DNA of 64,000 bases, from the NCBI GenBank assembly GCA_041650805.1, contig JBAZKM010000003.1, positions 156,439 through 220,438 of the forward strand, in the 5' to 3' direction. This DNA is from Candidatus Omnitrophota bacterium. Its GTDB lineage: Bacteria > Omnitrophota > Gorgyraeia > 2-01-FULL-45-10. The notes beneath the pieces are model-generated. The model did no database searches, had not been told where the DNA came from, and worked only from the letters and a program-made list of their open reading frames with translations. Position 1 is the stretch's first letter, and every line of letters begins with the position of its first letter. Of the stretch, positions 3,881 to 62,252 are shown in pieces. Both the position numbers and the translations under genes were made by a program.

Positions 3881-3922
3881 TTAACGTTCAGCTTTCAGCC
3901 GTCAGCTATCAGCTTTCAGCAA
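3881..3922. repeat. AGCTNTC heptamer array (cinA upstream/divergent region).
   Basis: cagctttcagccgtcagctatcagctttcagc. Confidence 0.8.
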
Positions 3923-3987: not shown

Positions 3988-4032
3988 GCGACTTAGCTAT
4001 CAGCTTTCAGCTGTCAGCTATCAGCAAAAGAA
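3988..4032. repeat. AGCTNTC heptamer array, forward orientation, on the left flank of the four-helix-bundle gene.
   Basis: tagctatcagctttcagctgtcagctatcagc. Confidence 0.8.
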
Positions 4033-4402: not shown

Positions 4403-4420
4403 TAGCTGAAAGCTGAGGCC
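4383..4420. repeat. AGCTNTC heptamer array in reverse-complement orientation (right flank of the four-helix-bundle gene), forming an inverted pair with 3988-4032.
   Basis: agctgaaagctgacggctgatagctgaaagctgag. Confidence 0.8.
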
Positions 4421-10503: not shown

Positions 10504-11157
10504 ATGATAGCTATAATCGACTACGGGATGGGTAACCTGAGGAGCGTCCAGAAGGCGTTCGAGGTCACGGGCGCCGGGGCGAAGATCACCTCAAGGGCGG
10601 CCGACCTGGCGAAGGCGGAAAAGGTCGTATTCCCGGGCGTCGGCTCTTTTGGAGAGGCGATGGCGGAACTGAGGAGGCGTAAGCTCGTAGACCCGATAAA
10701 GGGTGCCATCGCAGAGGGCAAGCCGTTCCTCGGCCTCTGCCTCGGGCTTCAACTGCTTTTTGAACGGAGCGAGGAAGCGCCCGGCGTTAAGGGGCTGGGA
10801 GTGCTTAGCGGCAGGGTGAAACGTTTTAAGCCCGCAGTCCACAGCCCACGGCCCAATGCTCAAACGTTGAAAGTCCCGCATATGGGCTGGAATAGTATCA
10901 GCTTTCAGCTTTCAGCTTTCAGCTTTCAGCAAAATATCCTGAAAGGCATAGACAGAGGTTCGTACGTATACTTCGTCCATTCATATTACGTCGATCCGGA
11001 GGATAAGAGTGTGACGCTTACGACGACGGATTATGGTATCCGGTTCGTGTCGGGTATTTCGAAGGATAATCTATTCGGTCTTCAATTCCACCCGGAGAAG
11101 AGCCAGGATACAGGGTTGAAGATAGTGAAGAATTTTGTGAGGATAAAATGCAGATAA
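10504..11157 (+). CDS. hisH: Imidazole glycerol phosphate synthase, glutaminase subunit.
   Basis: GATase-1 with catalytic LGLCLGLQ and PHMGWN...FVHSY. Has an in-frame AGCTTTC heptamer array at 10896-10932. Confidence 0.93.
   Translation: MIAIIDYGMGNLRSVQKAFEVTGAGAKITSRAADLAKAEKVVFPGVGSFGEAMAELRRRKLVDPIKGAIAEGKPFLGLCLGLQLLFERSEEAPGVKGLGVLSGRVKRFKPAVHSPRPNAQTLKVPHMGWNSISFQLSAFSFQQNILKGIDRGSYVYFVHSYYVDPEDKSVTLTTTDYGIRFVSGISKDNLFGLQFHPEKSQDTGLKIVKNFVRIKCR
10896..10932. repeat. AGCTTTC x5 heptamer array inside the hisH coding sequence.
   Basis: tcagctttcagctttcagctttcagctttcagc, encoding SFQLSAFSFQQ between the GWN and FVHSY motifs. Confidence 0.85.
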
Positions 11158-19979: not shown

Positions 19980-20906
<927 letters not shown>

Positions 20907-50200: not shown

Positions 50201-50455
50201 GGCAGTGCCTTCCTCGCCGGTGTCGATACCGCTAACTTTACGACGGTTTCATACCGGCCGCAGATAGACCTGCTCGAGATGCTGGCTGTGGCGATAGCGC
50301 TCTCTTCCGATAAAGAGCTCATGACCGACTCCGAGATAGAGAAGCGCCTCGGTTTCAGGCGCATCAATAAGCGCATGATCGTCTACCTGCCCGAAGCACA
50401 CCCCATAAACACCGAAGAATACCGCTTCCAGCTGGTTGCTCTCCAAAATGCATAA
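29171..50455 (+). CDS. Giant 7,094-aa multi-domain protein. Order: N-terminal signal/anchor, radical-SAM motif, GNAT, SAM-MTase, wHTH + degenerate Fic/Doc, kinase-like, HD, zincin-like peptidase, ~35x 31-residue repeats, AT-rich module, Rossmann-like region, and a conserved C-terminal domain.
   Basis: Single uninterrupted 21,285-nt ORF in GC-rich DNA. Domain motifs are listed as separate features. Recurring linker motifs delimit the modules. Confidence 0.9.
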   Translation: MFITLKQSNNIARRLVSVILIASFLFTNSDLSLAREIFSDRTTLSPASRFNPLAKIREKDDGTFDIVRDEEGRRDLKDGFKADAEFLYLSRLIGDALGDAVRMKLTYEGLRILIERDLRDTKTEFEHFDPARLYRRDDSYYLPYKSALTGGDLLLRYFVSSTGHKFPDAVKVADLGEGDFVWMETISADGIEASAPNAVLLKRPVDIIDPGEIKTGRDLVRIIDEVLRAPHPAEALQAACHSLAITGHAILAGYEEYLNDEGLGVKNAFSDMLRKVESGKLVWTKDDFGEFKKLVKKIPTIDDPNEDLFVDVLTDFTPDMIRLLANSGYDHSFNLQLTKGCGNQCLICGVSKARGAMHHIPFPIAAKLLRKVNRYQSKLMPYFDSDALHYRDSVVNATYADIVSFARRSGFTWVPTVTHGIGGAKAKGSGDIVREARNYLTISVHVYHHPVMEYVKSKLEGKMTDEALAKRRESIINMYADRFVYLIQGAIDSGKGFQIRLFRPNPDVEYMLQRHLYAYAAVKEIQAIQDEVWSRVKGRIPLDMDRTSDTHVVWIDDAARFLKDLGVPEDIIANTQKAYDDNIYNGASIVGDHYSLIAGPDGSVTMQVREGNNLRFRTVGEMFEGPASEGFGSFVQALKIISSFDYDNPKSSRNSYVSSAKMKDIGTDIEGLILRELRKEIARNPYSDEEVAEKVKEITVYRTMGDFYKLLFSFYLNQDEIRRLSHDPTEGGAALLYQRLKDVPFPVKMEFNIVMQDNELCVFSYSPMDAGRPGFEKDLYNSTRRFELPVRAFASRSEAAQRPPFPGHGPGSPHITQGPDEPAPLISRVDELWGDRPVRVRKIIAAILGDMRGPLTAISVRQAAGNILRDNLMNAKARQGAVDAITFRKWISRTGLISDLLAPADIGESDVAEIFLRHGLKFDRDLRRRLCGPFRDEISLIKKAMNALQEAYDPLLSDTSPDERSKQEFEEKYEFRAYEKGTSFVPVLGILWAVRDQDVVSISYRIANRIADDYRKARKAGRESIFPLIRNTRIRARLLERTAVDIPLAIHIFNDELDSRERGFFLGLIREYFGGEMVSAVSAVMSGRGMDDAVALAGRDRQFIIFSINFFLKSVFFYKSVDMGQLEKLIPDIPVNMGYEDILTAGIRERFSSIGPGTAWAETPEAGGLIGTFGRVNPETAFVPIGKFWPRDRIAYLTEDNSFALMRRRGGHAGYAGVAVDEEDRELLSEGGAVIPGTSTDGSRFVLIQRMIPVGERKVFAWKLKERGISAYSLPLGFITIERDGRRYRDYYPHLDCCLNVIARDFTEDGRVKILIDPLYYKSVKDDPEFRRLLREQGFLPDDVIIISEEDSGLNLANFAETISGDGRRILIFNAGAASTLSRIPLKAGSYEELPEPLYLLAQSGGLQRCASNLFPREEVPLPGAPSYKVDGTAFPPDVIEAIYRSFSDDGRFSRFLEAFRKCGIEIVQITANRYSDKTEALKTMLPYEAAIYVAPREGTEEVLNEILKGFEVILADLRSNWGGIIIDAGPDGENGIRERPPFPGHGPGTPHIAQGPDEPEDLLSPEPQAPGSKPITDAERLNKLDRKLSYIALGVSVPAFLAMLAGIMMGSDIGVAIVGVSSIIGSAALGTTALLRVKWILEPGERKETGGTTPVRVDITEERSERIEVTIERVPGEESEIHIVAKDPEGKEAGRATYMIRSEDAIQLLSIDVFESKKRRSGIGEQLMLRIKDEMVEAGRSEIFLFCLQSNAGAIRFYDKMGERLGMAMTKEDAIFHDQPPAAYKITYRITNDKRQKTNNGNPARNSGPDTITIKPVPPGTFPDLDARGTPQDRPGDQEKRRAQQQKLAVQLLQKEFARKEALVKYGIYTAAELAVVEGLYRRFAVGEDLSHFSPYEKVFIWQYMILMDMHSSSFRMLEEEVNRLAEDLEIDGLYVGFEWNDHMAPEDKVRTVENNISIRPGMRMLDIGCGKGSVIIELARRHAGVEFIGIDANPRNISNALTRLMEMGPEAPRNVRFHMLDCREPVADKAIPRRGIPYGEGAFDVISLMEGVFDEAHSSDSAERLLWREAIRVAGKDGGIVAFFGLAGKNKFEESLPEGVYAEMKDNTFFSIGGRNTRYYFPSWTREDEPSPYRREKTEFCVWRLALRHGEELPGHQVTMSPVASGLQTETAPGPSQPVQQDLPFETEGTPPPASDPSSGRRTQGNFGPGAMNVDEPLGRTSPLSEHAQETLFTARLHFSGEGFTAEDLLGKVASSGTGRILSDLDELERNGYIEAVGSGKTPGFRLTAEATFALITMEYNLSPIYIGELGRRGVDLPADIDNPDELASHIIEFTKGDARIDAKTTLHMILDLTNLLEWEYVYLQALEMKKAGKNWALIDTVGLEEALDKLRPLVSRRLLEVQDLEVGWIGHGLEAARTPPETDDFQKAASLVNRYVTGGLAAGEEELKEIHSVVSEHLKVFSAGRSRNVRRGEYRAYEDAYRDLTYFPLAEKVPDAMAAVFRLIKVPEFMGLHPVEQAAITFYLIHNIQPFDNGNTRTASLFMDCLLMKNNYPPFVISEYNERRFHEVIKFMRRPEPERFNEGSMTQSEFVNDPMKLLGSPDALAKIRRYAREFTAFLAEETARELVLQPPSPGSQTQGSPGHQVTRSPVRGDEGRLAEEAASASGTPDLSGYEPRWVTGVKEVGSDPAGPYEIFIDHGRNYGNYTDVNEALYNGKRYMAKWVSGHGEREGLIASQARVLNYLKDVLSDADLARISMPEYIQLEDGTRMLLFEKFTAGSTMNDIMESGFLALSNKRASLLRAVREIACAVKALHDVNVYHGDITLKNVWVFEDGRIKLFDFDFATMGTAGLRQRGLNLWFVSPERLERAFGKKEATIDKKAAVTDEVCSIGVIMTAVLTGELLFNHVVTGEKAGRKRPMRYDPRTALNAVGVPGRIVEVAVRALADSKDRFQTVDELIRALDGSETPSEPIGKTSPDAGKETFPKDPEPVSGTPETAALRDAIEAAIPQGIGFYKKRNPGQPDETTRRKIDEQNSLAEPLLTRTIERLRAHYPDIAEMLADLYPRVLPYYIAGMDVNYIQHHATVIDFASEIAVGERLDEKESAILILAALFHDSGNGLTTLSKVTATAVHNMPVTTPGERAAREGVIEQAVAFRKEHMEIGAGIVREIIEPYRARAPDILPGEDVSEIERLVLHHDDLKIPLWQENVDTTWLTAKDDRSLQFLMEADALWMLTPLGIRSDIDKSEGEPLSPSAQASFNVGLFRKWKELYDRAFDAETVNGYGFRDGTLLRSHAAYLIYQRLIEEAANDPENVPGRRTTPGNLGPGAMNIDEPFEARGPGPAPKTADRRPADTDFVEKVLDTQISMHGLQRLFDEGLLDKRIALAWYRALVSKGGLTDKELSDEIDGEMDYMPPDELYGALKDRGLNPKNRIVAIEADRVLKGYFDHLRREHGIVLPYGYLSIEDNVVFMPKRKLKRYYDAPKAVTDSFLHKVIISNEFKGKELLTYLIHEGLHLNAVGFYLQGVGGMRGSHLNEGMAEYLTRDAMEFMGVDGGSGLWRKTTAEWKVKAVRIVESMIRYMGERSTLIRAFFNGGIDTLPIIPMTLAKAVIKEKTQVYYDGNKMPFSAARRVIREKTPKDIPDDEIYILAEHDRNGYMLISRYTAAEGNEKGPGLQIVLSSIGVIPEDAPALLSVEAVTGYRALDMSDSMSLLEFFTALERATRTASESDLFFAAGKWESLKASVTAPTLSRVVLEITPYIERGLSLAMERCKAAKREKDDHLSAEAEFDDTADMDEDELAEHFAEKALNGEMPKGLENIFEPQDDDEGGSASDVTVRTASYWRTTPGNLGPGAMNIDEPFGSHKDGPLSIEEAVKRIEALLEDAPRQRSISTKEAVTNVLMSIARDGEFVFNRKQANRVASVRRFGDKLPLLKFLVTYKIKTEDGDRYVFNGGHVAIISPSSRTNQDAERLIVALKDMGITEGAHLAIITASSRSEDEIKKIVPFLRAHGITANSHIASILKSSRDEAEIGGLVSFLGDLGITEPAHITRILTTSRGRKEIEGMVTMLKGLGIVKGAHISYIVQTSRTEAEVKNLIDFLDGLGIRGGFAVASIVHSAREKDDISAIIETLRAAGITEDAHIAMILMSKRTGDEIAGILAKLKKHKIADGVSCSIILRSSRKEEDIEGIVKALKKCGMKSIHIALVISASRTKDQIEKAIRSLALYEIKNPSHIASILACSRSNKEIRMLVSMLVACGITDGAHIALIASTKRSTSEVRRLTGHLRRSGITHPFHIAAIIQSSRPEQGIMSLIEMLKASGITGGASIAMISGSSRSEAEISSVVSSVRSLGIVNSCNIATVVASSRKEEDIERLIRSFRRAGFEEPAHISLMIHSSRTEGEIAEIIAGLDAINISEHSAVARIIHSSRSKAEIEDLVKLLVENNIEKDGHIARIIGSSRPKVEVRSIIKTLKALGIVKPFDMAFIIQGKRSEDDIKEIISMLRKHGINKGFHIAVAIHCSRPKEGIERLLKTLAGQGITGGLDTALVIRSTRDEKEIPDIIETLKAAGIRKSFYLAEVLASSRTKSEIREIVRTLKALGITDAGSIAIVLKGSRSKKAINEMVPVLKAAGFSDERDLAHILLSGRTLAEINVTVSRLKACGIIKSSHIAHLLRTDRPIEEMERIIASLRDSGIRDASAMTRILMGGRSASEIKGLISELCSVSITTPKNIAVIARSDRSTKEMKELVGILNAAGIRDETAVTRIIACDRSNNEIRSVIPALRSLGITKEFHMAMVISTSRTVEDIKKVVEAARSSGINESFHLALVAGSSRRLSDIEGLFRSLEAEGITDQYHKACVVHSERTNAEISSGIALLKSIGVKAPAKIARLLSTSHSDEEFRSTVTLLEGVGITDINRIISILELRRPPAEVGDAFELLRQAGITDNTMSFPIIKRRSAEEIEGIVSLLKYKGIVNTGEIAIVLRSKRSREEIEITLKMLQRFGISESVPRALIIKSRHTAREIEDLIPALRQAGITRSAQIAGILYGEGSKEEIEEKITQKTLPEKEKAAPAPAEVMAQDMAEEMSAQEETMVAPEPVGVSKGKRVMPTLYKTLQSVGLLPKDAARLPADIEKRYSALSITDSMLFLKFFTIMKRVIAQYADGREEAPDEDVFVVASEAWRNIGAIKAGSDVHAIAQSIKGPAEDALAAAMRAIEKAREETARKNLMEERATEEEDEDVLAEQFAESALRGEVPEDLEEALEEVRGELTEQSSAEVLPEPDSELSMEESDAPSAGRTTPGNLGPGAMNIDEPFEAQGPQPTAQSPELPVPDSGLQARPFADVTVTPVVGEAAGVTLRGLYSIPAIPDETTAQPFFSVIMHERYYKEFTEKVVDFLRALEESMNTPKETREEKSKVLQKKYSLHDAMTKSLHKWAEYTLQNTNADGPLYAPGKGFSLYAIILACNTISDFYPQFTHIKPEEWLCYEIASYGKLPLNEKNRNILIKANGYLERVLADEDRTNQICRDLYGEDYRVINLVLKWLGNIAEITAHPAERNKARNFLTYFIKQLLRENRDILEAFASFVFDRFEKAKKQRSGSEENHGIKIAIVLTGAEHLGQWLRIKSKLLGKEIAFQDLSLTLSMFMHLEYINDAGDSGSYILGQSSKESLKQSLHEIGITPSDTRHLILVDTGFEGSINKYIVYPLKEMGVSEELLLLFRKDERSVNTYGFNQEQGWEGSEKRLRKLAHIIDDGFEASTLSPTQFSDITDKKLASTQRPWFCELIKREIELFAYTTSEGLSATQPDIAEDDLVGAAPLTARPFALFPAAGATAEVSTTPAGGVPQSDVSQTVQQIAPETFSGPIGKASPDAGEDTFPKDSEAVSVANEEQEGLIQLYRRLYPVVFEFADQAGIVTGDKVVVIGTHVDWQCGIACALKGADVISIGLESDEDEREFKAADEVRESIEKNGGQYRIMRPYDYLKVPVPESSIKIIVAQNVIDDPEANSPAIVRKMLRDVQDGGYIAVSFLCDEQIWYTNIKRQAERLGFILQESVFADFTGMSGTSYIFRVIKNAPGLTAQSSQPTAQSPVLQAQGSPVTSHQSPVQERGQTPSALSSASAETLEAKSGISKVMLWRRDSTGEGGVVEAADDEIRETAQEIAAGKYKFTYLITGNILSLGIVEDDKKTHHDKVKKPNIEDRPLKGDKMDGQFLILPWEIERRTYAEWREQYIRFARFLIEQGILASEPLQVALKASGVIPKIFEPDPMPETLGELANMSLSNEIAPSSQLPTPNSILQAPSPNLTLQAQESTVHGPRSTKGAPVVVEDKEYGVTLLDDYYTYLPRETYGLSLLGTKVGISNTRYAVVRLKDTTINVATHHSAGYIFPVMAAKDGLINGDEVLLHIDFARHPDDADLILSPPPLGNDIGEHLAFLGPYKDKGFLGPENYLTALKKAFPDLVPVFLKDEDDGHYSWGGIEWAYQGSVIDFLAQIQDKTGGARFPWLARGKIASIDLDIFRCLKDDTTKTEQLLDAIADVAAPAKLIMIFTSPGYLDKEFAITLAERLVEKIARNLQDLAGNDRDVSVNGEGRGQGSQVLVKDIQKRGQTPSTEEHLTRLDNVYFGAFPYNGDTSYVKNEESHVRVPRSRPGRGDMLVDVNSATIFEYGLIESKIKTSPLKVMVSDETDGKVANCHQGEAILIKTENANDVLGTLFLEECDAIGGRTVIKGEPYLFLYHKNDSFRNKSFSTFVQWLLKMSDSVQDLECCISMRRGLDERCAAEYENFQETIADLSSLYPGVRVHAVRSRQEPGLFGSMVVSKYGVTCRTAKYTGRTRRDDATADWANAEVAMVPFAVGSSPKTQEPVFGAHDAQTPNSQPPTPNLTLQAPNSKLQANWPVRLVDTIKIRAMEAKEEGQKLIVGVGTSWIPGYAEQGEEHNGLNPILSELRNLRALDNIVFVDAPDNELAQELIKKADGSKTDYKNVIVLADNKFVSGELKASTEIEKAALDGFRSLANGSAFLAGVDTANFTTVSYRPQIDLLEMLAVAIALSSDKELMTDSEIEKRLGFRRINKRMIVYLPEAHPINTEEYRFQLVALQNA
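30150..30800 (+). other. Radical-SAM-like region of the giant protein.
   Basis: NLQLTKGCGNQCLICG contains CxxxCxxC (Cys codons at 30191, 30203, 30212). Confidence 0.45.
31573..31637 (+). repeat. Linker motif A, copy 1: RPPFPGHGPGSPHITQGPDEP.
   Basis: Near-identical at nucleotide level to 33790-33852. Confidence 0.85.
33790..33852 (+). repeat. Linker motif A, copy 2: RPPFPGHGPGTPHIAQGPDEP.
   Basis: ccgccgttcccgggccacgg...cagggaccggacgaacc. Confidence 0.85.
34165..34495 (+). other. GNAT N-acetyltransferase domain of the giant protein.
   Basis: Motif A RRSGIGEQLM (R/Q-x-x-G-x-G/A), with the beta-strand pattern IHIVAKD...LLSIDVF before it and AIRFYDKMG after it. Confidence 0.6.
35040..35470 (+). 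other. Class I SAM-dependent methyltransferase domain of the giant protein.
   Basis: Motif I MRMLDIGCGKGSVIIELA; acidic post-I residue in FIGIDAN; motif II-like AFDVISLMEGVF. Confidence 0.6.
35776..35830 (+). repeat. Linker motif B, copy 1 (divergent): RRTQGNFGPGAMNVDEPLGRTSP.
   Basis: Related to the three near-identical copies at 39121, 40712 and 45055. Confidence 0.8.
35870..36900 (+). other. Winged-helix + Fic/Doc (Fido)-like domain with a degenerate active-site motif.
   Basis: ILSDLDELERNGYIEAVGSG (wHTH), then AITFYLIHNIQPFDNGNTRTASLF. The canonical HPFx(D/E)GNGRxxR has H->Q and G->T (nt 36769-36798). Confidence 0.45.
37250..37990 (+). other. Protein-kinase-like (ePK/APH superfamily) domain of the giant protein.
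   Basis: AxK YMAKWV; catalytic-loop-like HGDITLKNVWV; DFG-like KLFDFDFA; SPERLE. Confidence 0.55.
38086..38165 (+). repeat. Linker motif C, copy 1: PIGKTSPDAGKETFPKDPEPVSGTPE.
   Basis: Near-identical to 46738-46815 (PIGKASPDAGEDTFPKDSEAVS). Confidence 0.8.
38380..38800 (+). other. HD-domain phosphohydrolase region of the giant protein.
   Basis: LAALFHDSGNG (H..HD) and LVLHHDDLKIP. Confidence 0.55.
39121..39180 (+). repeat. Linker motif B, copy 2: RRTTPGNLGPGAMNIDEPFEA.
   Basis: ~50-nt near-identity with the copies at 40712 and 45055. Confidence 0.9.
39480..39960 (+). other. Zincin-like metallopeptidase (Peptidase_MA-like) region.
   Basis: HEGLH (39706-39720), with NEGMAEYL 25 residues downstream (HExxH + EGxAEY). 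Confidence 0.45.
40712..40765 (+). repeat. Linker motif B, copy 3: RTTPGNLGPGAMNIDEPFG.
   Basis: actacaccgggcaacctcggccccggcgcgatgaatatcgacgagccgttc. Confidence 0.9.
41030..44340 (+). repeat. Array of ~35 tandem 31-residue repeats (~1,100 aa) within the giant protein.
   Basis: Consensus G-I-T-x-x-x-H-I-A-x-I-L-x-S-S-R-S-x-x-E-I-x-x-L-V-x-x-L-x-x-x. The Arg is invariant in nearly every unit. Positions 3-7 and the three residues before the Arg are hypervariable. Confidence 0.85.
45055..45125 (+). repeat. Linker motif B, copy 4: RTTPGNLGPGAMNIDEPFEAQGPQPTAQSPE.
   Basis: Followed by a heptamer-encoded PELPVPDSGLQA linker. Confidence 0.9.
45290..46610 (+). other. Compositionally distinct AT-rich module inside the giant ORF (probable acquired cassette).
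   Basis: ~1.3 kb of visibly lower GC (A/T-rich codons, K/N/I/Y-rich peptide), bounded upstream by linker B copy 4 and downstream by linker C copy 2. Confidence 0.6.
46738..46815 (+). repeat. Linker motif C, copy 2: PIGKASPDAGEDTFPKDSEAVSVANEE.
   Basis: atcgggaaagcgtctcccgatgcgggcgaagacaccttcccgaaggat. Confidence 0.8.
49840..50455 (+). other. Conserved C-terminal domain of the giant protein, shared with the C-terminus of the ORF at 3..1814.
   Basis: Begins after the heptamer-encoded linker PNLTLQAPNSKLQA; colinear similarity to the ORF1 tail. Confidence 0.5.
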
Positions 50456-50975
50456 AAAAGCGTAAATTTTTACGGGTCCTGCCGCTCCCTCGCCTTTTGT
50501 TTCTATAGGGCATTCAACGCTCTCGAGGCGTACCAATGACCGATCGTGGATCCCAGGCGCCGTAGTGCCCTATACTCCAAAAGGCTCGGTCGCGTCACCC
50601 GTAAAAATTTTACCTAGTTCATATAGTAAAAAATTTTTCGTCTCTCATCGAAGGGGCCCCCGATGGTGGGGTATCGACCGGGACCTGAATCCAAATTTTG
50701 ACAGGGCAAAATTTGGATATCGTATCATCAGACGAATATCCAGAATTTGCCATGACAAATTCTGGATGAAAATCGCGAGCGGGCACGGATCCCGCCAAAC
50801 ACCTTTAAAAGAGCGTCTATTGACATAACAGGGCTACCCGACTCGTTTGGCGGGAGAGCGAGCGATTTTCCGGAGTCACATTTTCCTCGCCGGGGAAAAT
50901 GTGACGTTCCCGGGAGATACCCCACCGGAGAGGGGACACGTGGAAAAGACGAAAAATTTGACCTTAAAATTTTAC

Positions 50976-51004
50976 TTGACATATATATACTATTATTGTA
51001 TATA
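50976..51004 (+). promoter_or_regulatory. Sigma70-like promoter of the rimP-nusA-infB operon.
   Basis: TTGACA (50976-50981), 17-nt spacer, TATATA (50999-51004). Shares the TTGACATATATA start with the giant-gene promoter. Confidence 0.5.
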
Positions 51005-51023
51005 TAGTACATACTTTTCTTAA

Positions 51024-51068
51024 AGGAGGAAAAGTGGGTTTAAGCATTGTTTAGACCCATTTTTTTTT
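51024..51068 (+). terminator. Leader element: RBS + 6-codon ORF (GTG..MGLSIV) embedded in a hairpin followed by a T9 run (candidate attenuator upstream of rimP).
   Basis: AGGAGG 51024-51029; GTG 51034; stem gggtttaag/tttagaccc (51036-51058) with loop cattg; T9 at 51060-51068. Confidence 0.45.
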
Positions 51069-51090
51069 GCCCCAAAATCGGAGCCTACAA

Positions 51091-51543
51091 ATGGATGTAA
51101 TAGATAGAGTTAAGGAGTTGATAGCTAAGTATTTAGAAGAAAACGCCATCGAACTCGTGGAGATAACTTACAGGCGCGAACAGCCGGGGATGGTGCTGCG
51201 GCTGCTCGTTGATAAAGAGGGAGGTATCACCATCGCCGAGTGCGAGGAGCTGAATAATCACCTCAGCGAGGCCCTAGATAAAGAGGATATCATAAGCGAC
51301 CGCTACCTGCTTGAGGTCTCATCGCCCGGGCTCGACAGGCCTATGAAGACGGACAGGGACTTCGAGCGCGCCATGGGTAAGGTGCTTGATATAACCACTT
51401 ATGAGCGTATAGACGATAGGAAGACACATGAGGGGAAGCTCGTAGGCATGGACAGGGAGAACGTTGTAATAGAGTCGAACGGCCTGAGCACGGTCATACC
51501 CAGGGCGAAGATCGCCCGCGCGGTGCTTAAGGTAGAGATCTAA
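51091..51543 (+). CDS. rimP: Ribosome maturation factor RimP.
   Basis: MDVIDRVKELIAK...LEVSSPGLDRP. ATG 51091 with a GGAG RBS; the TTG 51067 alternative lies in the T-run. Confidence 0.88.
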   Translation: MDVIDRVKELIAKYLEENAIELVEITYRREQPGMVLRLLVDKEGGITIAECEELNNHLSEALDKEDIISDRYLLEVSSPGLDRPMKTDRDFERAMGKVLDITTYERIDDRKTHEGKLVGMDRENVVIESNGLSTVIPRAKIARAVLKVEI

Positions 51544-51556
51544 CGAGAGGTCAATC

Positions 51557-52756
51557 ATGAACGAAGAACTGATCGCAGTACTTGAACATATGGAGCGCGA
51601 GAAGGGCATCGACAAAGAGCTGCTCTTTAAGGCGATAGAGTCCGCCCTTGTCAGCGCCGCCAGGAAGATACTCGGGAATAAAGAGGCCGATGTGACCGTC
51701 ACCGTAGACAGGGCCACGGCCGAGATAAAGATCCTGAGCGACGGCAAGGAGATAAATTCCGCGGAGTTCGGGAGGATCGCCGCCCAGACTGCCAAGCAGG
51801 TCATAATACAGAAGATACGGGAGGCGGAGCGCGATATAGTGCTTGAGGATTATACCAAGCGTGTCGGCACCATCACCAACGGCGCCGTCCACAGGTTCGA
51901 AAAGGGCGATATCGTAGTGGACCTGGGGAAGACCGAGGCGATACTGCCGAAGTCCCAGCAGTGCCCTCGGGAAAGGTACAGGCAGGGTGACAGGGTACGG
52001 GCATACATACTGGAGGTCAACAAGACCTCTCACGGCCCGCAGGTGATCCTGTCGCGTTCCGATGCGTCCTTCGTGAAGAAGTTATTCGAGATAGAGGTGC
52101 CGGAGATCACCGAGGGGATAGTGGAGGTCAGGGCCATATCCCGCGAGGCCGGCGAAAGGACGAAGATCGCCGTATGGTCCAAGGACGAGAAGGTGGATGC
52201 GGTAGGGGCATGCGTGGGCATGCGCGGCTCGCGTGTAAAGGATATAGTGCGGGAACTCCAGGGCGAAAGGGTCGACATAGTACGGTGGTCGGACGACATA
52301 CGGGAGTACGTCAAGGCGGCGCTCTCCCCGGCAGAGATCCAGGAGATGAAGATCGACAAGGCCAATAAGAAGGTCGAAGCGATCCTGCCCGATGACCAGC
52401 TCTCGATAGGGATAGGTAAACACGGACAGAACGTGCGCCTTGCCTCGAAACTGACCGGTTGGGAGATAGATATACGGGGCAAAGAACCGAAGGTTAAGGT
52501 CGAGGTTAAGGCTGAGGAAGCGGTTCAGGAGGAAGCCGGGAGTTTGGAGTCAGGGGTTGGGAGTAAAGAAAAAACTAAAGAGATAAAGATCACGGACCTG
52601 GAAGGTGTCGGAGCGAAGACAGGCAAGGTCCTGACAGAGGCCGGTTACGATACGGTGGAGAAGATAAAGGCCCTTACGATAGAAGACATGACGAAACTCG
52701 AAGGCATAGGGAAGAAGACGGCGGAGAAGATACTGAAGTCGGCAAAGGAGCTATAG
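51557..52756 (+). CDS. nusA: Transcription termination/antitermination factor NusA.
   Basis: N-terminal domain, S1 domain, two KH domains (GACVGMRGSRVK), C-terminal HhH repeats. Confidence 0.95.
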   Translation: MNEELIAVLEHMEREKGIDKELLFKAIESALVSAARKILGNKEADVTVTVDRATAEIKILSDGKEINSAEFGRIAAQTAKQVIIQKIREAERDIVLEDYTKRVGTITNGAVHRFEKGDIVVDLGKTEAILPKSQQCPRERYRQGDRVRAYILEVNKTSHGPQVILSRSDASFVKKLFEIEVPEITEGIVEVRAISREAGERTKIAVWSKDEKVDAVGACVGMRGSRVKDIVRELQGERVDIVRWSDDIREYVKAALSPAEIQEMKIDKANKKVEAILPDDQLSIGIGKHGQNVRLASKLTGWEIDIRGKEPKVKVEVKAEEAVQEEAGSLESGVGSKEKTKEIKITDLEGVGAKTGKVLTEAGYDTVEKIKALTIEDMTKLEGIGKKTAEKILKSAKEL

Positions 52757-56730: not shown

Positions 56731-57388
56731 AGAAGAAGCCAAAAGGATAATCGAGGCATTGCTATTCGTGAGCGACAAACCGGTGTCGATCGACGCCCTG
56801 CGCGAAGTGCTCAAGGGTATAGAGGCGACCGAGATACGGGGATTGATAGAGGCGCTTAACGGAGAATATGCCTCCTCCGCGAGGAGTTTCAGCATAAAGG
56901 AGATAGCCGGCGGTTTCCAGATGATGACCGACCCTATCTATTCGAAATCGATATCGGCGCTCTATAAGAGGCCGCCGGACCGGCTCACCGGCCCGGGGCT
57001 TGAGACGCTCGCCATCATAGCGTACAAGCAGCCTATAACGCGGAACGAGATAGAGGCGATAAGGGGTGTCAACGTAGACGGCGTATTGGGCACGCTGGAA
57101 GAACGCGGGCTGATCAGGACCAGGGGGCGTCTGGAGGCGCCCGGCCGCCCGATGCTTTACGGCACTACGAGCGAATTCCTGCAGCACTTCGGTCTGAAGT
57201 CGCTAGAGGAGCTGCCCAAGCTGAAAGAGTTCAAGGAGAGCGACCTAGATTTTGTCAGAGAATCGGAAAAACATCAGGTGATCGATAAAACGAGCGGGAA
57301 GGCGGAAAGCGTTCCGGTAGAGGAACCGTCCGGCATTGTCAAGGAGGAGAATAGCGATGGACCTAAAGAGATTGCGCCGAATAGTTGA
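56723..57388 (+). CDS. scpB: Segregation and condensation protein B.
   Basis: Tandem winged-helix ScpB (EALLFVSDKPVS...AIIAYKQPITRNEIE). Confidence 0.9.
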   Translation: MDKEEAKRIIEALLFVSDKPVSIDALREVLKGIEATEIRGLIEALNGEYASSARSFSIKEIAGGFQMMTDPIYSKSISALYKRPPDRLTGPGLETLAIIAYKQPITRNEIEAIRGVNVDGVLGTLEERGLIRTRGRLEAPGRPMLYGTTSEFLQHFGLKSLEELPKLKEFKESDLDFVRESEKHQVIDKTSGKAESVPVEEPSGIVKEENSDGPKEIAPNS

Positions 57389-58427
57389 CGCGATAGACGC
57401 CGGGATATTGAAGCTTCTGAATAAGAGGGCAAAGGTCATATCCGATATAGGCAGGATAAAGGCAAAGAGCAGGAGATCGGTATATGTGCCGCACCGGGAG
57501 GCGGAGGTATATGATAAGCTGGTCTCGAAGAACAGGGGGCCGCTCCCGAACGAATCTGTCATAGCCGTGTTCAGGGAGATAATGTCCGGGTCTCTCGCCC
57601 TGGAAAAGCCGACCGTCATCGCATACCTGGGGCCCGAGGCCACTTTCACCCATATGGCGGCTCTTAAGAAGTTCGGCTCCAGTGTCACATACAAGAGCTG
57701 TGACACCATAACCGATGTATTTTCCGAGGTGGAGAAAGGCCGGGCCGATTACGGCGTCGTCCCGATAGAGAATTCGTGGGAGGGGGCCATAAGCCATACC
57801 CTCGACATGCTCATAGATTCGGACCTAAAGGTCTGTTCGGAGATATTCCTGGATATATCGCACAGCCTTCTATCCAGGGAGGCGGACAAGAGCAGGATAA
57901 GAAGGATATATTCGAAACCCGAGGTCTTCGGCCAATGCAGGATATGGATAGAGTCGAATATGCCGAAGGCTGAGCTCGTGGATGCCTCGAGCACGACAAA
58001 GGCCGCCGAGATAGCTTCCGGCCAGAAGGGGTCCGCCTGCATAGCGAGCGAACTCGCCGCAGGACATTACGGGCTTAAGGTCCTTGAGAGCGGCATAGAG
58101 GATAGCGCCCATAATGTGACGCGCTTCCTTGTCATAGGTAAGACGGACGCGGAACGGACGAAGAACGACAAGACGTCCATAATGCTCTCCGTGAAGGATA
58201 AGGTAGGAGCGTTGCACGACATACTCGTGCCGTTCAAAAGATACGGGATAAACCTGACGAAGATAGAATCGAGGCCTTCAAAGGTGAGGGCCTGGGAGTA
58301 CTATTTCTTTGTCGATCTCGAAGGTCATTACAGCGATCCGAAAGTATCCAGGGCGCTCGATATGCTGAGGAAGAACTCTGCGCACCTCAAGATACTCGGA
58401 TCGTATCCGGCGGGAAATGGAGCATAA
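57357..58427 (+). CDS. pheA: Bifunctional chorismate mutase / prephenate dehydratase (P-protein) with C-terminal ACT domain.
   Basis: N-terminal CM domain (LKRLRRIVDAIDAGILKLLNKRAKV), PDT domain, and ACT domain (SIMLSVKDKVGALHDIL). Confidence 0.9.
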   Translation: MDLKRLRRIVDAIDAGILKLLNKRAKVISDIGRIKAKSRRSVYVPHREAEVYDKLVSKNRGPLPNESVIAVFREIMSGSLALEKPTVIAYLGPEATFTHMAALKKFGSSVTYKSCDTITDVFSEVEKGRADYGVVPIENSWEGAISHTLDMLIDSDLKVCSEIFLDISHSLLSREADKSRIRRIYSKPEVFGQCRIWIESNMPKAELVDASSTTKAAEIASGQKGSACIASELAAGHYGLKVLESGIEDSAHNVTRFLVIGKTDAERTKNDKTSIMLSVKDKVGALHDILVPFKRYGINLTKIESRPSKVRAWEYYFFVDLEGHYSDPKVSRALDMLRKNSAHLKILGSYPAGNGA

Positions 58428-58434
58428 CTAAATA

Positions 58435-58510
58435 GTCACCAAGTCACCAGGTCACAAAGTCACCAGTGAAAGCTTTTACGGGTGACGTGGTGACCTGGTG
58501 TCCTGGTGAC
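58435..58510. repeat. ~75-bp imperfect palindromic intergenic element built from GTCACCA heptamers (copy 1).
   Basis: gtcaccaagtcaccaggtcacaaagtcaccagtgaaagcttttacgggtgacgtggtgacctggtgtcctggtgac. It shares the 31-nt core caaagtcaccagtgaaagcttttacgggtgac with 60639-60708. Confidence 0.85.
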
Positions 58511-58527
58511 CAAATAAGCTATATACT

Positions 58528-59619
58528 ATGAAAAATCTTGTGCGAAAGAACATACTGGGCGTCAAACCGTACGTCCCCGGGAAACCGATAGAGGAAGTCG
58601 AGAGGGAGCTGGGCCTTAAGGACGTCATCAAGCTGGCGTCCAACGAGAGCTGCCTCGGCCCTTCGCCCAGGGCGCTGGCCGCGGTAAGGAAGAACCTGGG
58701 TAAGATAAACCGGTATCCTGACGCCTCATCTTTCTATCTTAAGGAGAGGACGGCGAAGTTCCTCGGCGTGAAGCCGGATAATCTCGTATTCGGGAACGGT
58801 TCTGATGAGATCATCTGCCTTGCGCTCAGGGTCTTTGCCGGGGAAGGCGACGAGGTCATAATAGCCCGTCCCACCTTCCTTATCTATGAGATCGCCTCTC
58901 AGATCCAGAACGCTACGGCAAAGTTCGTTCCCCTGACGGCCGATTTCAGGTATGATCTCAACGCGATGAAGAGGGCGGTAACCGCAAAGACGAAGATCAT
59001 CTTCATCGCCAACCCGGATAACCCGACAGGCACCTATGTCACGAAGGCGGAGCTTGACGAATTCTTCGACGGGCTTCCCGATAAGGTGGTCGTATTCCTG
59101 GATGAAGCGTATTTTGAGTTCGCCGATCACGGCCGGAAGGACTATCCGAACGGTCTCGATTATATCAAGCGCCCGAACGTCATAGTATCGAGGTCTTTTT
59201 CGAAGGCGTACGGCCTCGCCGGCCTCAGGGTAGGTTACGGCGTAGCCAACCCCGGTATCATAAGTTACATCGAGCGTGTGCGAGAGCCGTTCAACGTGAA
59301 TATACTGGCCCAGGCAGGGGCTCTTGCCGCCCTTGACGATGCCGCCTTCCTCAAGAGGAAGCTGGCGCATGTGGCCAAAGAGAAGGAATTTCTCTATTCT
59401 GCCTTCGGCTCCATGGGACTCCGGTATGTCCCGAGCGCGACGAATTTTATACTCGTAGACGTAAAGAAGGACTGCAAGACCGTCTTCGGCGGACTGCTGA
59501 AGAGGGGCGTGATAGTGCGCGATATGAAGGCGTGGGGCATGGATACGTTCATCCGCGTCACGGTCGGCACGCGTGCGGAGAATCGTAAGTTCATTAAAGC
59601 GCTCAGGGGGGCATTATGA
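58528..59619 (+). CDS. hisC: Histidinol-phosphate aminotransferase.
   Basis: NPDNPTGTY, SFSKAYGLAGLRVGY (PLP lysine), 363 aa. Confidence 0.92.
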   Translation: MKNLVRKNILGVKPYVPGKPIEEVERELGLKDVIKLASNESCLGPSPRALAAVRKNLGKINRYPDASSFYLKERTAKFLGVKPDNLVFGNGSDEIICLALRVFAGEGDEVIIARPTFLIYEIASQIQNATAKFVPLTADFRYDLNAMKRAVTAKTKIIFIANPDNPTGTYVTKAELDEFFDGLPDKVVVFLDEAYFEFADHGRKDYPNGLDYIKRPNVIVSRSFSKAYGLAGLRVGYGVANPGIISYIERVREPFNVNILAQAGALAALDDAAFLKRKLAHVAKEKEFLYSAFGSMGLRYVPSATNFILVDVKKDCKTVFGGLLKRGVIVRDMKAWGMDTFIRVTVGTRAENRKFIKALRGAL

Positions 59620-60632
59620 TAATAGTATTGCGGCCCGACGCAACGAAGAAACAGCTGGACCACATAGTCGCCAGGATAAAGAAACTTAAACTGAAACCGT
59701 GGATATCCAAAGGCGTAGAGCGGACAATCATCGGGGTGATAGGGGAAGAGGACGTGATACGCGCTCAGCCGCTGGAAGTATTCCCCGGCGTAGAGCGAGT
59801 ATTGTCGATACTGAAACCGTACAAGCTGGCGTCACGCGATCTCAATAAAGAGGGAACCGTAGTCGATGCCGGCGGCGGTGTGAAGGTGGGCGGCAAAGAG
59901 ATAGTCGTGATGGCCGGTCCGTGTTCGGTCGAGAACAGGCCGCTGCTGCTGGAGATAGCGCGGGCGGTAAAAAAGGCGGGCGCCAAAGTGCTGCGGGGCG
60001 GCGCATTCAAGCCCAGGACGTCACCGTACGCGTTCCAGGGGCTCGGCCTGAAAGGGCTCAAGCTTCTTGCGGAGGCGAAGACCGAGACGGGGCTCCTTAT
60101 CGTCACCGAGCTGATGGATATACGGGACCTCGATGCCGTGCTGAAGTATGCCGACATAATACAGATCGGCGCCAGGAACATGCAGAACTTCAACCTCCTG
60201 AAAGAGGTCGGGAAGTCGAAGAAGCCCGTGCTCCTCAAGCGCGGTATGGCGAATACGGTGAAAGAGTTCCTGATGTCAGCCGAATATATACTTTCAGAAG
60301 GTAACTTTAAGGTCATACTCTGCGAGAGGGGTATAAGGACGTTCGAGGATGCCACGCGTTTTACGCTCGATATAAGCGCCGTGCCTGTCGTAAAGAACCT
60401 GAGCCACCTGCCCATAATCGTAGATCCGTCGCACGCGACCGGTAAGTGGGGGCTTGTGGGCGCATGCGCGAAGGCAGGGTTGGCCGCAGGGGCGGACGGC
60501 CTCATAATCGAAGTCCACCCTAATCCGGAAGAGGCATTTTCTGACGGAGAACAGTCGCTCTATCCTAAAAACTTCGCGTCTCTCATGGGCGAACTGCGCA
60601 AGGTAGCGAAGGCGGTAGGAAGGGAGATGTAA
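59616..60632 (+). CDS. aroF: 3-deoxy-7-phosphoheptulonate (DAHP) synthase, class I-beta.
   Basis: GPCSVENRPLLLEIARAVKKAGAKVLRGGAFKPRTSPYAFQGLG, VDPSHATG. The symbol follows common annotation usage. Confidence 0.85.
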   Translation: MIIVLRPDATKKQLDHIVARIKKLKLKPWISKGVERTIIGVIGEEDVIRAQPLEVFPGVERVLSILKPYKLASRDLNKEGTVVDAGGGVKVGGKEIVVMAGPCSVENRPLLLEIARAVKKAGAKVLRGGAFKPRTSPYAFQGLGLKGLKLLAEAKTETGLLIVTELMDIRDLDAVLKYADIIQIGARNMQNFNLLKEVGKSKKPVLLKRGMANTVKEFLMSAEYILSEGNFKVILCERGIRTFEDATRFTLDISAVPVVKNLSHLPIIVDPSHATGKWGLVGACAKAGLAAGADGLIIEVHPNPEEAFSDGEQSLYPKNFASLMGELRKVAKAVGREM

Positions 60633-60638
60633 CATTCA

Positions 60639-60708
60639 TGTCACAAAGTCACCAGTGAAAGCTTTTACGGGTGACCTGGTGACGGGTGACCTGGTGACCG
60701 AGAGGCTA
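60639..60708. repeat. GTCACCA-heptamer palindromic intergenic element (copy 2).
   Basis: tgtcacaaagtcaccagtgaaagcttttacgggtgacctggtgacgggtgacctggtgac. Confidence 0.85.
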
Positions 60709-60709
60709 T

Positions 60710-61567
60710 ATGATTCGATTTAATAAGGTCGCGATAATCGGCGTAGGATTGATGGGCGGCTCGATCGGGCTGGCAGTGAAGAAGCGAAGAGTGGCCGGAG
60801 AGGTCATCGGCGTCTTCAGGCATGCCTCCACTTTGAGGAGGGCCCTGAAGAGAAGGGCCGTAGACCGCGGGACCCTGAGCATAGAGGAGGGCGTAAAGGA
60901 CGCCGACCTAATTATAATAGCAACGCCCGTATATTCCATACCGCCGCTTGCGGCAAAAGTGATGCGTTATGCGAAGAAGGGGGCCATGATCACCGATGCA
61001 GGCAGCACGAAGAAGTGGCTGGTGGGAGAAGTCGAGAGGAAACTCGGTAGTTCCCGCCGGGTATTTTTCGTAGGGTCCCATCCTATGGCCGGGTCGGAAC
61101 ACGCAGGGGTTGAGTTCGCCAGGGACAACCTCCTGGCCGATGCCCCGTGCATAGTGACGAGGACCCCGAAGACCGACAGGCGCGCCCTCGGGGCCGTCAT
61201 CAACTTCTGGTCGGCGCTGGGCGCAAGGGTCGCCATTATGGACCCTTCCGCACACGACAGGAACATATCGTTCGCAAGCCATCTGCCGCACCTGGTCGCT
61301 TTCGGCGTCATAGGGGCCGTCCCGGAGAAGTATTTCCTCTATTCGGCGGAGGGCTTTAAAGACACTACGAGAGTGGCATCGAGCGACCCCAGGATGTGGA
61401 CGGATATCTTCCTGACCAACAGAAAAGATGTCCTGAGGTCGGCCCGCATGTTCAAGGGCTACCTCGGCGAGATAGTACGGGTGGTGAAGAACGGAGATTC
61501 CAAGAAGCTCTTCCGCCTGCTTAAGAGCGCAAAGATGAAGCGCGACAAATTCTTTTATGGGAAATAA
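60710..61567 (+). CDS. tyrA: Prephenate dehydrogenase.
   Basis: VAIIGVGLMGGSIGLAV NAD(P)-binding, HPMAGSE. Confidence 0.88.
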   Translation: MIRFNKVAIIGVGLMGGSIGLAVKKRRVAGEVIGVFRHASTLRRALKRRAVDRGTLSIEEGVKDADLIIIATPVYSIPPLAAKVMRYAKKGAMITDAGSTKKWLVGEVERKLGSSRRVFFVGSHPMAGSEHAGVEFARDNLLADAPCIVTRTPKTDRRALGAVINFWSALGARVAIMDPSAHDRNISFASHLPHLVAFGVIGAVPEKYFLYSAEGFKDTTRVASSDPRMWTDIFLTNRKDVLRSARMFKGYLGEIVRVVKNGDSKKLFRLLKSAKMKRDKFFYGK

Positions 61568-62252
61568 GAGCCCGCGGACGCTCGTGATAGCAATAGACGG
61601 GCCTGCGGGGAGCGGAAAGAGCACCGTCTCCAAGCTTATAGCTAAAAAGCTCGGCATACTGTATGTAGACACAGGGGCCATGTACAGGGCGCTTACCCTT
61701 AAGGCGATGCGGGAACGTATAGACCTCAAAGATGAAGATGCCCTGGTATCATTGGCCCGTTCCACCGGCATAGACCTTGGCGAAGGGGCCGGGCGCCTCA
61801 GGGTGCTGCTTGACGGAGAAGACGTGGCGGGCCTCATACGCACGCCGGAACTGACCGCAAATATAAAGTACATAGCGCGGGTGCCGGGGGTGAGGCACGA
61901 GATGGTGAGACTCCAGCGCGCCATAGGCAAACGGCAGGGCGCCGTCCTGGAGGGAAGGGATATAGGCACGGTCGTATTCCCGGACGCCGACCATAAATTC
62001 TATCTTGACGCAAGCGTCAAAGAGAGGGCCAGGCGCAGGCACAGGGAGTTGCTTGAGTCCGGCGAAAAGGTCAGCGTTGAGGAGATAGAGAAAGATATAG
62101 TCGTAAGGGACGAATCGGACATAAAGAGGGAGGTCGGCGCGCTCAAAAAGGCCGACGACGCCGTTCTCATCGATACGACGGGCCTCACGATAAATGAGGT
62201 AGTAGAGAAGATATTAAGTCATATACCCGATACCCTATACCCTATACCCTGA
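61557..62252 (+). CDS. cmk: Cytidylate kinase.
   Basis: IAIDGPAGSGKSTVSK, VDTGAMYRA. The C-terminal residues DTLYPIP are encoded by the CCCTATA repeat (62225-62250). Confidence 0.92.
   Translation: MGNKSPRTLVIAIDGPAGSGKSTVSKLIAKKLGILYVDTGAMYRALTLKAMRERIDLKDEDALVSLARSTGIDLGEGAGRLRVLLDGEDVAGLIRTPELTANIKYIARVPGVRHEMVRLQRAIGKRQGAVLEGRDIGTVVFPDADHKFYLDASVKERARRRHRELLESGEKVSVEEIEKDIVVRDESDIKREVGALKKADDAVLIDTTGLTINEVVEKILSHIPDTLYPIP

Follow-up and report, generated by a model that had tools for sequence, protein, structure and literature searches.

Two palindromic elements in an aromatic amino acid operon

The window analysed here, a 64-kb stretch of DNA from a Candidatus Omnitrophota bacterium, carries on its + strand, in this order, infB, trpS/tyrS, scpA, scpB, pheA, a gene for a hisC-like aminotransferase, the gene for 3-deoxy-D-arabino-heptulosonate 7-phosphate (DAHP) synthase, tyrA, cmk, ispH and rpsA (Pfam). 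Two of the junctions in this operon, pheA-hisC and DAHP synthase-tyrA, are each occupied by a copy of a palindromic element made of GTCACC-type repeat units, which is the subject of this study. An earlier note on this DNA, made from the sequence alone, had placed the two copies around hisC and the DAHP synthase gene, and Pfam showed both gene labels to be correct. The genes next to the elements are as follows.

57336-58427, + strand, pheA (Pfam)
58528-59619, + strand, hisC-like aminotransferase (Pfam)
59616-60632, + strand, DAHP synthase (aroF; Pfam)
60710-61567, + strand, tyrA (Pfam)

The two elements consist of the following parts.

58434-58511, + strand, copy 1, full palindrome, within the 100-nt pheA-hisC spacer
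58434-58465, + strand, copy 1 left array, AGTCACCA x4 (Tandem Repeats Finder, period 8)
58466-58480, + strand, copy 1 centre, GTGAAAGCTTTTACG
58481-58511, + strand, copy 1 right array, GGTGACCT x3.9, i.e. (T/G)GGTGAC(C/G) x4 (Tandem Repeats Finder)
60640-60699, + strand, copy 2, within the 77-nt DAHP synthase-tyrA spacer
60640-60654, + strand, copy 2 left array, 2 units, truncated (outer 16 nt of the left arm gone)
60655-60669, + strand, copy 2 centre
60670-60699, + strand, copy 2 right array, 4 units, mixed 7/8 period (Tandem Repeats Finder)
58451-58486 and 60640-60675, + strand, 36-nt identical stretch: inner two left units, centre and first right unit

Copy 1 began 6 nt past the pheA stop codon and stopped 16 nt short of the hisC ATG, and copy 2 was followed on its 3' side by a Shine-Dalgarno-like GAGAGG and then by the tyrA ATG at 60710. 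The arms were tandem arrays of 8-nt units, xGTCACCA on one side and TGGTGACx on the other, that is, GTCACCA plus one base, placed around the sequence GTGAAAGCTTTTAC. This centre is itself a palindrome but for one G.T pair, so that copy 1 was palindromic throughout; an inverted-repeat scan returned 38-nt arms that were 84% complementary and had no spacer between them. The GTCACC-type palindromic arms described in the earlier note were thus recovered, but with a period of 8, not 7, and with a mixed period of 7/8 in the right arm of copy 2. Across the window GTCACC occurred 51 times, with 18.5 occurrences expected.

The identical core that the earlier note had reported for the two copies was also confirmed, and it proved to be longer than stated. 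The 32-nt core CAAAGTCACCAGTGAAAGCTTTTACGGGTGAC had exactly two exact matches in the window, both on the + strand (58455-58486 and 60644-60675), with 0 expected from 100 shuffles, and the alignment of both sites extended the full identity to 36 nt (58451-58486 versus 60640-60675). Beyond this stretch, the right arms of the two copies matched at 22/25 positions, and GCTATAT directly before the start codon was common to both. As far as the two sites can speak for their history, the 36-nt identity, the homologous right arms and the common GCTATAT show that both copies derive from one element.

The same junctions in related genomes

The closest relatives of the HisC protein belonged to Candidatus Omnitrophota (best identities 68-74%). 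ENA and Logan contain contigs that match the window fully (L081 is 100% identical), and the Logan contigs stop inside both cores, as assemblies do at repeats. Protein look-ups lengthened the sequence of this genome by only ~4 kb, on the right-hand side (L083), and gave no match for the first ORF, recA or P0001. The gene order around both copies was unchanged in all relatives examined, which speaks against the earlier proposal that they mark recombination-prone sites.

What filled the junctions did vary. The same operon had tight junctions (0-10 nt or overlapping) in L001, L004 and L005, and in other relatives the junctions were filled with 60-100-nt palindromes of inverted degenerate heptamers, the unit being specific to the genome.

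GTGTTGC, L002
TAGCGTA, L006 and L007
CGGTTAG, L008
TTACGCT, L009
CGTACGG and GCTGANA, L014

This array fill ran from the stop codon to the ribosome-binding site, and the aroF-tyrA junction was occupied in the window, L002, L006 and L014. The unit families were also found at unrelated genes, in L006 at infB-trpS and behind rpsA and in the window inside the giant gene, and they persisted between genomes whose HisC proteins were 62-68% identical, though at different positions. Centres like AAAGCTT(T) were common to palindromes of different unit families (58466-58480 in the window, 8109-8204 in L006, 3263-3337 in L008), such a centre being itself one unit of the AGCTTTC family. As the same junctions were tight or filled with other units in relatives, the elements are dispensable and turn over quickly in position.

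Operon junctions of Omnitrophota collect several kinds of palindromic element. In L014, GCTGAAAGCTTAAT directly abutted the ATG of both hisC and scpA. Palindromes of CAAGANA/CAATAAC heptamers, ~140-200 nt long and 23/24 nt alike in part, were seen in two Omnitrophota with HisC proteins 62% identical (L032 4677-4814 and L039 10963-11100). Junction hairpins not made of heptamers, with folding energies of -63 to -91 kcal/mol, occurred in other Omnitrophota (L007 4023-4221 and 5852-5973, L059 7090-7277), and a widespread 'gtcattgcgag...ctcgcaatgac' type was among them.

Heptamer arrays in the window and in the lineage

The earlier note had overlooked the wider population to which the two copies, a small family of their own, belong: short heptamer arrays spread over the genome and the lineage. 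Counting arrays of at least 3.5 units, we found 17 of period 7 in the window, compared with 0-3 for the periods 5, 6 and 8-11 and 0.03 in random sequence of the same composition. They belonged to at least 8 unit families, including AGCTNTC, ACCCTAT, GGTCCAC, AGCCCAC, CTCCAAG and GTCACCA, some with a free position (e.g. AGCT-N-TC). Inverted pairs were frequent (e.g. 1818-1889, 1966-2110 and 6845-6925), and 14/23 window arrays lay inside open reading frames (ORFs). In related and unrelated genomes, period-7 arrays were present in 13/42 Omnitrophota loci (26 in 446 kb) versus 1/38 loci labelled as other phyla (1 in 420 kb; Fisher p = 8e-4). A class of short heptamer/octamer arrays appears to pervade the window genome and those of its Omnitrophota relatives. 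The excess of period 7, the several unit families and the degenerate positions place this population among the heptameric simple-sequence repeats (SSRs) and short tandemly repeated repetitive sequences (STRRs), yet the arms of the GTCACC palindromes have a period of 8. The GTCACCA unit was present at period 7 as well (47443-47472), and (GTCACCA)3 was found in at least 120 metagenome contigs (GC 0.38-0.70) and 12 viral contigs, none of which had inverted GTCACC arrays within 150 nt; the unit is widespread, the palindrome is not.

Further arrays of the window that bear on the two copies are listed below.

35635-35665, + strand, ACCAGGTC x4, degenerate, GTCACC unit family, giant ORF
37095-37127, + strand, GGTCACCA x4, GTCACC unit family, in frame, giant ORF
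47443-47472, + strand, GTCACCA x4.3, perfect, giant ORF
50461-50612, + strand, 150-nt nested palindrome directly after the giant gene, RNA fold -60.9 kcal/mol (z -5.2)
1818-1889, 1966-1996 and 2078-2110, + strand, AGCTNTC/GCTGANA arrays without a gene, around a canonical terminator hairpin
6845-6925, + strand, inverted AGGGTAT x4 / CCCTATA x4.7 pair, in frame in alaS (6070-8658)
62223-62250, + strand, single array ATACCCT x4, stopping 5 nt before the ispH start codon and overlapping the end of cmk

Fragments of the core had been reported previously at 50458-50480 and 50590-50612. One exact 13-mer, GTCACCCGTAAAA at 50594-50606, was indeed common with the core, on the opposite strand, and was the sole exact match; but both fragments proved to be the outer arms of the separate nested palindrome at 50461-50612. 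At either end this palindrome had a GTAAA(A)TTTTTAC mini-palindrome, its inner stem, TATAGGGCA/TGCCCTATA, contained one CCCTATA-type unit, and it had no Rfam match.

The array pair in alaS encodes GIGFRVSGIEKARPESPYPIPYTLYP within a surface loop, which exceeds that of Aquifex AlaRS by 12 residues, and as DNA it folds into a hairpin of -24 kcal/mol (z -7). Arrays also lay in frame in hisH (AGCCCAC and TTTCAGC, 10829-10930) and in cinA on the minus strand (2659-2692 and 3299-3323), and a nucleoside triphosphate (NTP)-transferase gene had CCCTATA and GGTCCAC arrays inside and just upstream (19981-20011 and 20499-20533). Within housekeeping genes, repeats whose period is not divisible by three are unusual. 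The giant ORF (29171-50455, 7094 aa) contained at least 12 short heptamer/octamer arrays, concentrated at 45111-49833. Downstream of the ORF at 12-1814, the gene-less AGCTNTC/GCTGANA arrays adjoined a real terminator, the canonical hairpin agcccggg...cccgggcttttttt at ~1893-1962, and did not replace it.

Heptamer arrays around the PF05635 genes examined

One gene of the window was itself enclosed by such arrays.

4037-4402, + strand, PF05635 gene (23S_rRNA_IVP; TIGR02436 'four helix bundle protein'; Pfam), in the cinA-recA divergent spacer
3887-3920 and 3993-4027, + strand, AGCTNTC arrays upstream of the PF05635 gene
4380-4416, + strand, inverted GANAGCT array at the 3' end of the PF05635 gene

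The GANAGCT array overlapped the stop codon of the gene and encoded its C-terminal residues (KLKADG*), and 73/120 closest homologues of the protein ended in L-x-[AT]-[DE]-x, the peptide encoded by the GANAGCT array. The segment 3993-4416 was the only true PF05635 array cassette in the window. The two GTCACC palindromes are not such cassettes, as there was no ORF between their arms and their centre is only 15 nt long.

Heptamer arrays, usually inverted, flanked 24/24 PF05635 genes examined from Omnitrophota, cyanobacteria and other phyla, although several of the cyanobacterial plasmid loci were orthologous, which leaves ~20 independent contexts, not 24. Among the loci picked solely for (GTCACCA)3, five (L136, L140, L161, L162 and L178) had a further PF05635 gene, each between heptamer arrays, three of these genes standing between GGTGAC and GTCACC arrays. 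L049 (Fimbriimonadaceae) was a weaker case of a PF05635 gene with arrays. Three homologues were picked by protein similarity alone: the genes of L217, between two glycosyltransferase genes, and of L218, between the T2SSE and T2SSF genes, both had AGCTNTC upstream and GANAGCT downstream, and that of L224 was flanked on either side by AGCTNTC as direct repeats. By tblastn, 72,556 plasmids yielded 26 PF05635 records, 22 of them cyanobacterial, and in the plasmid loci inspected heptamer arrays stood at the ends of the gene in 17/17 cases, ~14 as inverted pairs. The arrangement was [GTCAGGA]n-gene-[TCCTGAC]n in plasmids of Nostoc, Trichormus, Scytonema and Aulosira, GTAGGGA/TCCCTAC in N. edaphicum, AGGGTGT/ACACCCT in Calothrix and GGTGACA/CTGTCACC in Anabaena sp. 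90, where the gene lies between cas6 and cas4. The arrays were enriched at the ends of PF05635 genes, with 17/49 arrays in 8% of the sequence (p = 1e-7); as a background, 50 kb of N. punctiforme pNPUN02 contained 9 loose arrays, of which 2 flanked its one PF05635 gene.

The flanking unit followed the protein. The PF05635 proteins of L229 (Nostoc) and L244 (Stanieria) were 80% identical and both genes had CTTCTGC; those of L232 (Calothrix) and L240 (Pseudanabaena) were 74% identical, with AAAGCTA in both; and those of the window, L217, L218 and L224 were 58-69% identical, all with AGCTNTC. PF05635 subfamily and flanking unit thus appear to vary together, across taxa and contexts. The protein is a 120-aa helical bundle without known catalytic activity, and its solved structures 2GSC and 2RLD are uncharacterised.

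Some of the PF05635 loci had neighbours or repeats of their own. The gene with its arrays stood inside CRISPR-Cas operons, between cas6 and cas4 in L233 (Anabaena sp. 90 pANA02) and L240 (Pseudanabaena galeata), with different units, and between cmr2 and cmr3 in L234 (Picosynechococcus PCC 7003). In L224-L228, GCTGANA arrays downstream of the PF05635 gene alternated with a ~40-nt spacer (tttagttttttctcttac..aattttgctttt), forming a higher-order repeat of ~75 nt that recurred at least 4 times and adjoined toxin-antitoxin-like genes.

Relative to the neighbouring genes, the GTCACC palindromes and the PF05635 cassettes were arranged equally, with GTCACC after stop codons and GGTGAC before start codons. 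The palindromes had been considered as internal-deletion derivatives of a GTCACC-type PF05635 cassette, and this was rejected because the order of the arms is reversed.

Folding and RNA-level evidence

The earlier note had expected both copies to fold into long imperfect hairpins. This was so for copy 1, whose predicted fold had -50.5 kcal/mol as RNA (z -9.2) and -26.5 kcal/mol as DNA (z -9.0, versus shuffles), with a predicted RNA stem of ~30 bp, interrupted. The fold of copy 2 was weak and not clearly better than shuffles (RNA -26.0 kcal/mol, z -2.0; DNA -11.2 kcal/mol, z -1.4). The proposed terminator role failed for both: the terminator scan found no terminator-like site at copy 1 or copy 2, and no T-run followed either of them (tails AAATAAGC and GAGAGGCT), so neither is an intrinsic terminator. 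No Rfam family reached the gathering threshold over the whole window, and in E-value mode the segments 50300-51600 and 58350-60800 gave chance-level matches only, the sole match with E<1 being a plant miRNA-precursor model at 23.9 bits versus a threshold of 170.

Mismatches between the arms were compared in 18 palindromes. G.T mismatches (22) were about as many as A.C mismatches (24), and 126/172 mismatches were of the transversion type. As G.T was not in excess, there was no sense-strand RNA signature, and the claim of RNA-level selection, which had been drawn from the stabilities of sense and antisense folds, was dropped in favour of this cleaner test. The two arms look like oppositely oriented arrays of a single unit, the free positions varying independently in each. 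Palindromy that continues through the centre points to an origin at the DNA level. Unit variants in the same rather than the mirror order in both arms were also considered; two cases fitted, but chance suffices to explain them, and the idea was dropped.

Comparison with known systems

Heptamer SSRs are known as the STRRs of Calothrix, Nostoc and Anabaena and as (GGGANTN)n of Xanthomonas and Nostoc, with a function that is given as unexplained in PMC4692102 (Mrazek 2007 as cited there). Like the arrays described here, they consist of 7-nt tandem units, mostly ~4 per array and mostly intergenic, with 1-2 free positions, some form inverted pairs able to fold into stem-loops, and several unit families occur per genome (PMC4692102). 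They differ from our arrays in that the host of the latter belongs to Omnitrophota, the arms of the GTCACC palindromes have a period of 8, and in Omnitrophota pairs of arrays regularly make up complete palindromes that occupy operon junctions, and arrays lie in frame in essential genes too. The TAACTGA repeats of marine Beggiatoaceae are likewise heptamer arrays, of 2-6 units, many of which end a few nucleotides before a start codon, in housekeeping operons and some inside ORFs (PMC4679880). However, Beggiatoaceae have one dominant unit with 169 direct sets versus 1 inverted (PMC4679880), whereas the present arrays comprise many unit families with inverted pairing as the rule; the GTCACC palindromes, with another unit and inverted arrays, share with that system only the closeness to start codons.

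The repetitive extragenic palindromic (REP) sequences, the bacterial interspersed mosaic elements (BIMEs) and the REP doublets forming hairpins (REPINs) are also extragenic palindromic doublets that form hairpins in single-stranded DNA or mRNA, and the gene of the cognate REP-associated tyrosine transposase (RAYT) is flanked by its own repeat (PMC3116915), as PF05635 genes are by their arrays. In contrast to them, no RAYT was found in the window, tandem arrays take the place of a fixed REP in the arms, and PF05635 has no known catalytic activity. REP/REPIN-RAYT is the closest analogue in logic, though the GTCACC palindromes do not qualify as its members.

In 23S rRNA intervening sequences, inverted flanks form a long stem, some carrying a PF05635 ORF, at places where cleavage is tolerated. 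They resemble the present elements as an inverted-flank stem with or without a PF05635 ORF in a transcribed region, but the GTCACC palindromes lie between protein-coding cistrons, not in rRNA. Rickettsia palindromic elements sit in frame in essential genes, and foldback elements have inverted arms of short tandem repeats with unequal unit numbers. The likeness lies, for the former, in palindromic repeats able to sit in frame in essential genes and, for the eukaryotic foldback elements, in the inverted arms with their unequal numbers of short tandem units. Compared with both of these and with miniature inverted-repeat transposable elements (MITEs), the palindromes have no sequence relation, are much shorter and lack target-site duplications. 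Heptamer arrays as such are known; what is new is their presence in Omnitrophota, the regularity with which they fill operon junctions as palindromes, and the association with PF05635. In the library searched, we found no paper linking Omnitrophota with heptamer repeats and none linking PF05635 with heptamer arrays.

Probable origin and possible effects of the palindromes

Taken together, these results favour an explanation that we regard on the whole as rather probable. The GTCACC elements are in all likelihood STRR-like array palindromes without a gene inside. The array palindromes probably originate at the DNA level, where they would arise and spread, their arrays lengthening and shortening by slippage, and copy 2 would have come from copy 1 either as a partly truncated duplicate or through gene conversion. 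The palindromes would be tolerated at the two junctions, pheA-hisC and aroF-tyrA, and would not act as regulators of the aromatic amino acid operon. An effect of copy 1 in the operon mRNA is a more tentative proposal, in which we have less than even confidence: its stem of ~30 bp might hold back 3' exonucleases and/or be processed by RNase III in the polycistronic mRNA, and might end translational coupling, as REP hairpins and rRNA intervening sequences do, without terminating transcription. Such an effect of an RNA hairpin between cistrons would, we infer, be incidental.

Several observations weigh against this explanation. The exact element is visible in only two copies, and exact scans found no match to the 32-mer core in GTDB representative genomes and none to a 28-mer of the core in JGI metagenomes. 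The fold of copy 2 is no better than that of ~2.5% of shuffles, and processing or stabilisation by the hairpin would be an analogy, not an observation. The sense-strand fold was slightly stabler than the antisense fold in 13/16 array hairpins, by small margins, which leaves some room for RNA-level selection. With regard to PF05635, the orthology of some plasmid loci has been mentioned, and the order [GTCACC]n-centre-[GGTGAC]n of the palindromes is the reverse of [GGTGAC]n-gene-[GTCACC]n in L136, L178 and L233.

The palindromes could instead be neutral by-products of mutation, of a lineage bias to 7-nt slippage together with template switching, and have no function, mobility or partner protein. 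In the passages of PMC4679880 and PMC4692102 that summarise Mrazek 2007, heptamers are the commonest long SSR in many bacteria, with polymerase slippage as the proposed cause, and the location of the arrays in spacers and variable protein loops, the lack of an RNA-level selection signature and the array-free state of the same junctions in relatives would all fit. Yet slippage alone leaves unexplained the retention of AGCTNTC between genomes at 62-69% protein identity, the 36 identical bases, non-repetitive plus repeat, at two distant copies, and the arrays that flank one gene family in 24/24 cases, and we consider this explanation unlikely. The earlier note had called the elements REP/MITE-like. 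That they are REP/REPIN repeats mobilised by a RAYT tyrosine transposase is extremely improbable: as extragenic inverted doublets able to form a hairpin they have the general REPIN shape (PMC3116915), but no transposase, RAYT included, was among the ~40 proteins scanned in the window, which were housekeeping enzymes; their arms are tandem arrays of variable unit number, no REP feature, in place of a fixed 20-40-nt REP; at least 8 unit families would need as many cognate RAYTs; arrays also stand singly and within reading frames; and a fixed palindrome in tens to hundreds of copies contrasts with two copies in 64 kb. Classical MITEs, which derive from DDE transposons, are non-autonomous and have terminal inverted repeats and target-site duplications, would account for the terminal-inverted-repeat-like arms, the length below 100 nt, the presence of at least two copies, the AAATA on both sides of copy 1 and the breaking of Logan contigs inside both copies, as at dispersed repeats. 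We nevertheless give them little credence, as no target-site duplication was consistent (AAATA was confined to copy 1), half of one arm is missing from copy 2, palindromy extends across the centre of the entire element, the two copies remain homologous beyond the arm, up to the start codon, and no parent transposon was seen in the window.

Two further explanations assign the copies a role in the expression of the downstream genes. The 36-nt core might be an operon-specific operator or RNA leader, bound by an aromatic amino acid regulator upstream of hisC and tyrA, since the two palindromic sites are identical and each immediately precedes an aromatic-pathway gene. The GTGAAA..TTTTAC of the centre loosely resembles the half-sites of a TyrR box, but a TyrR-box-like operator was rejected on the half-site spacing, which differs, and on the lack of conservation in relatives, where these junctions hold unrelated array palindromes or nothing. 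As the same unit families moreover occur at genes unrelated to the pathway (in L006 at infB-trpS and behind rpsA, in the window within the giant gene), Rfam had no match and the core was absent from all collections searched, an operator of any such kind is very improbable. A translational switch is also quite improbable. Its GGUGAC units would be Shine-Dalgarno-like or standby sites complementary to a presumed UCACC of the 16S rRNA 3' end and sequestered by the GUCACC arm; the right arms stop 10-16 nt before the ATG codons, arrays often end 0-22 nt before start codons, like the TAACTGA repeats (PMC4679880), and the cyanobacterial PF05635 cassettes have AGGAG in the upstream array and its complement in the downstream one. 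However, copy 2 is followed by a GAGAGG that lies outside its hairpin, many unit families (AGCTNTC, ATACCCT) are unlike Shine-Dalgarno sequences, and mismatches show no sense-strand bias.

Returning to the STRR-like array palindromes, we see a possible, though rather doubtful, extension of their DNA-level origin. The PF05635 protein, a relative of Avd of diversity-generating retroelements, and its cognate arrays might form a widespread module that moves jointly into operon junctions. Short heptamer arrays, the cyanobacterial STRRs among them, would then be the cis-elements of this module, and gene-less palindromes such as the GTCACC element its non-autonomous copies or landing sites, by analogy with RAYT and REPINs.

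Implications

By themselves the GTCACC palindromes are a minor feature: repeats that can form hairpins, dispensable, at two junctions of an operon. They belong, however, to dense heptamer arrays such as have been described in cyanobacteria, Xanthomonas and giant sulfur bacteria, which are carried here by Omnitrophota, a group with no cultured model. Such arrays break assemblies, as Logan contigs end inside both copies, and they insert in frame into essential genes, e.g. alaS. PF05635 ('four helix bundle / S23 / 23S rRNA IVS', where IVS stands for intervening sequence) is a concrete and testable candidate partner for the arrays, whose unit tracks the protein subfamily in the genes examined, and Nostoc or Anabaena, being genetically tractable, would allow a test of the link. 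Should the link prove functional, it would account for a gene family of unknown function and, at the same time, for a class of repeats that has lacked an explanation for decades, STRRs having been known since 1990. If the joint movement of PF05635 and its arrays is true, the palindromes would be the trace of an undescribed mobile or RNA-processing system in Omnitrophota, Cyanobacteria, Gemmatimonadota and Proteobacteria.

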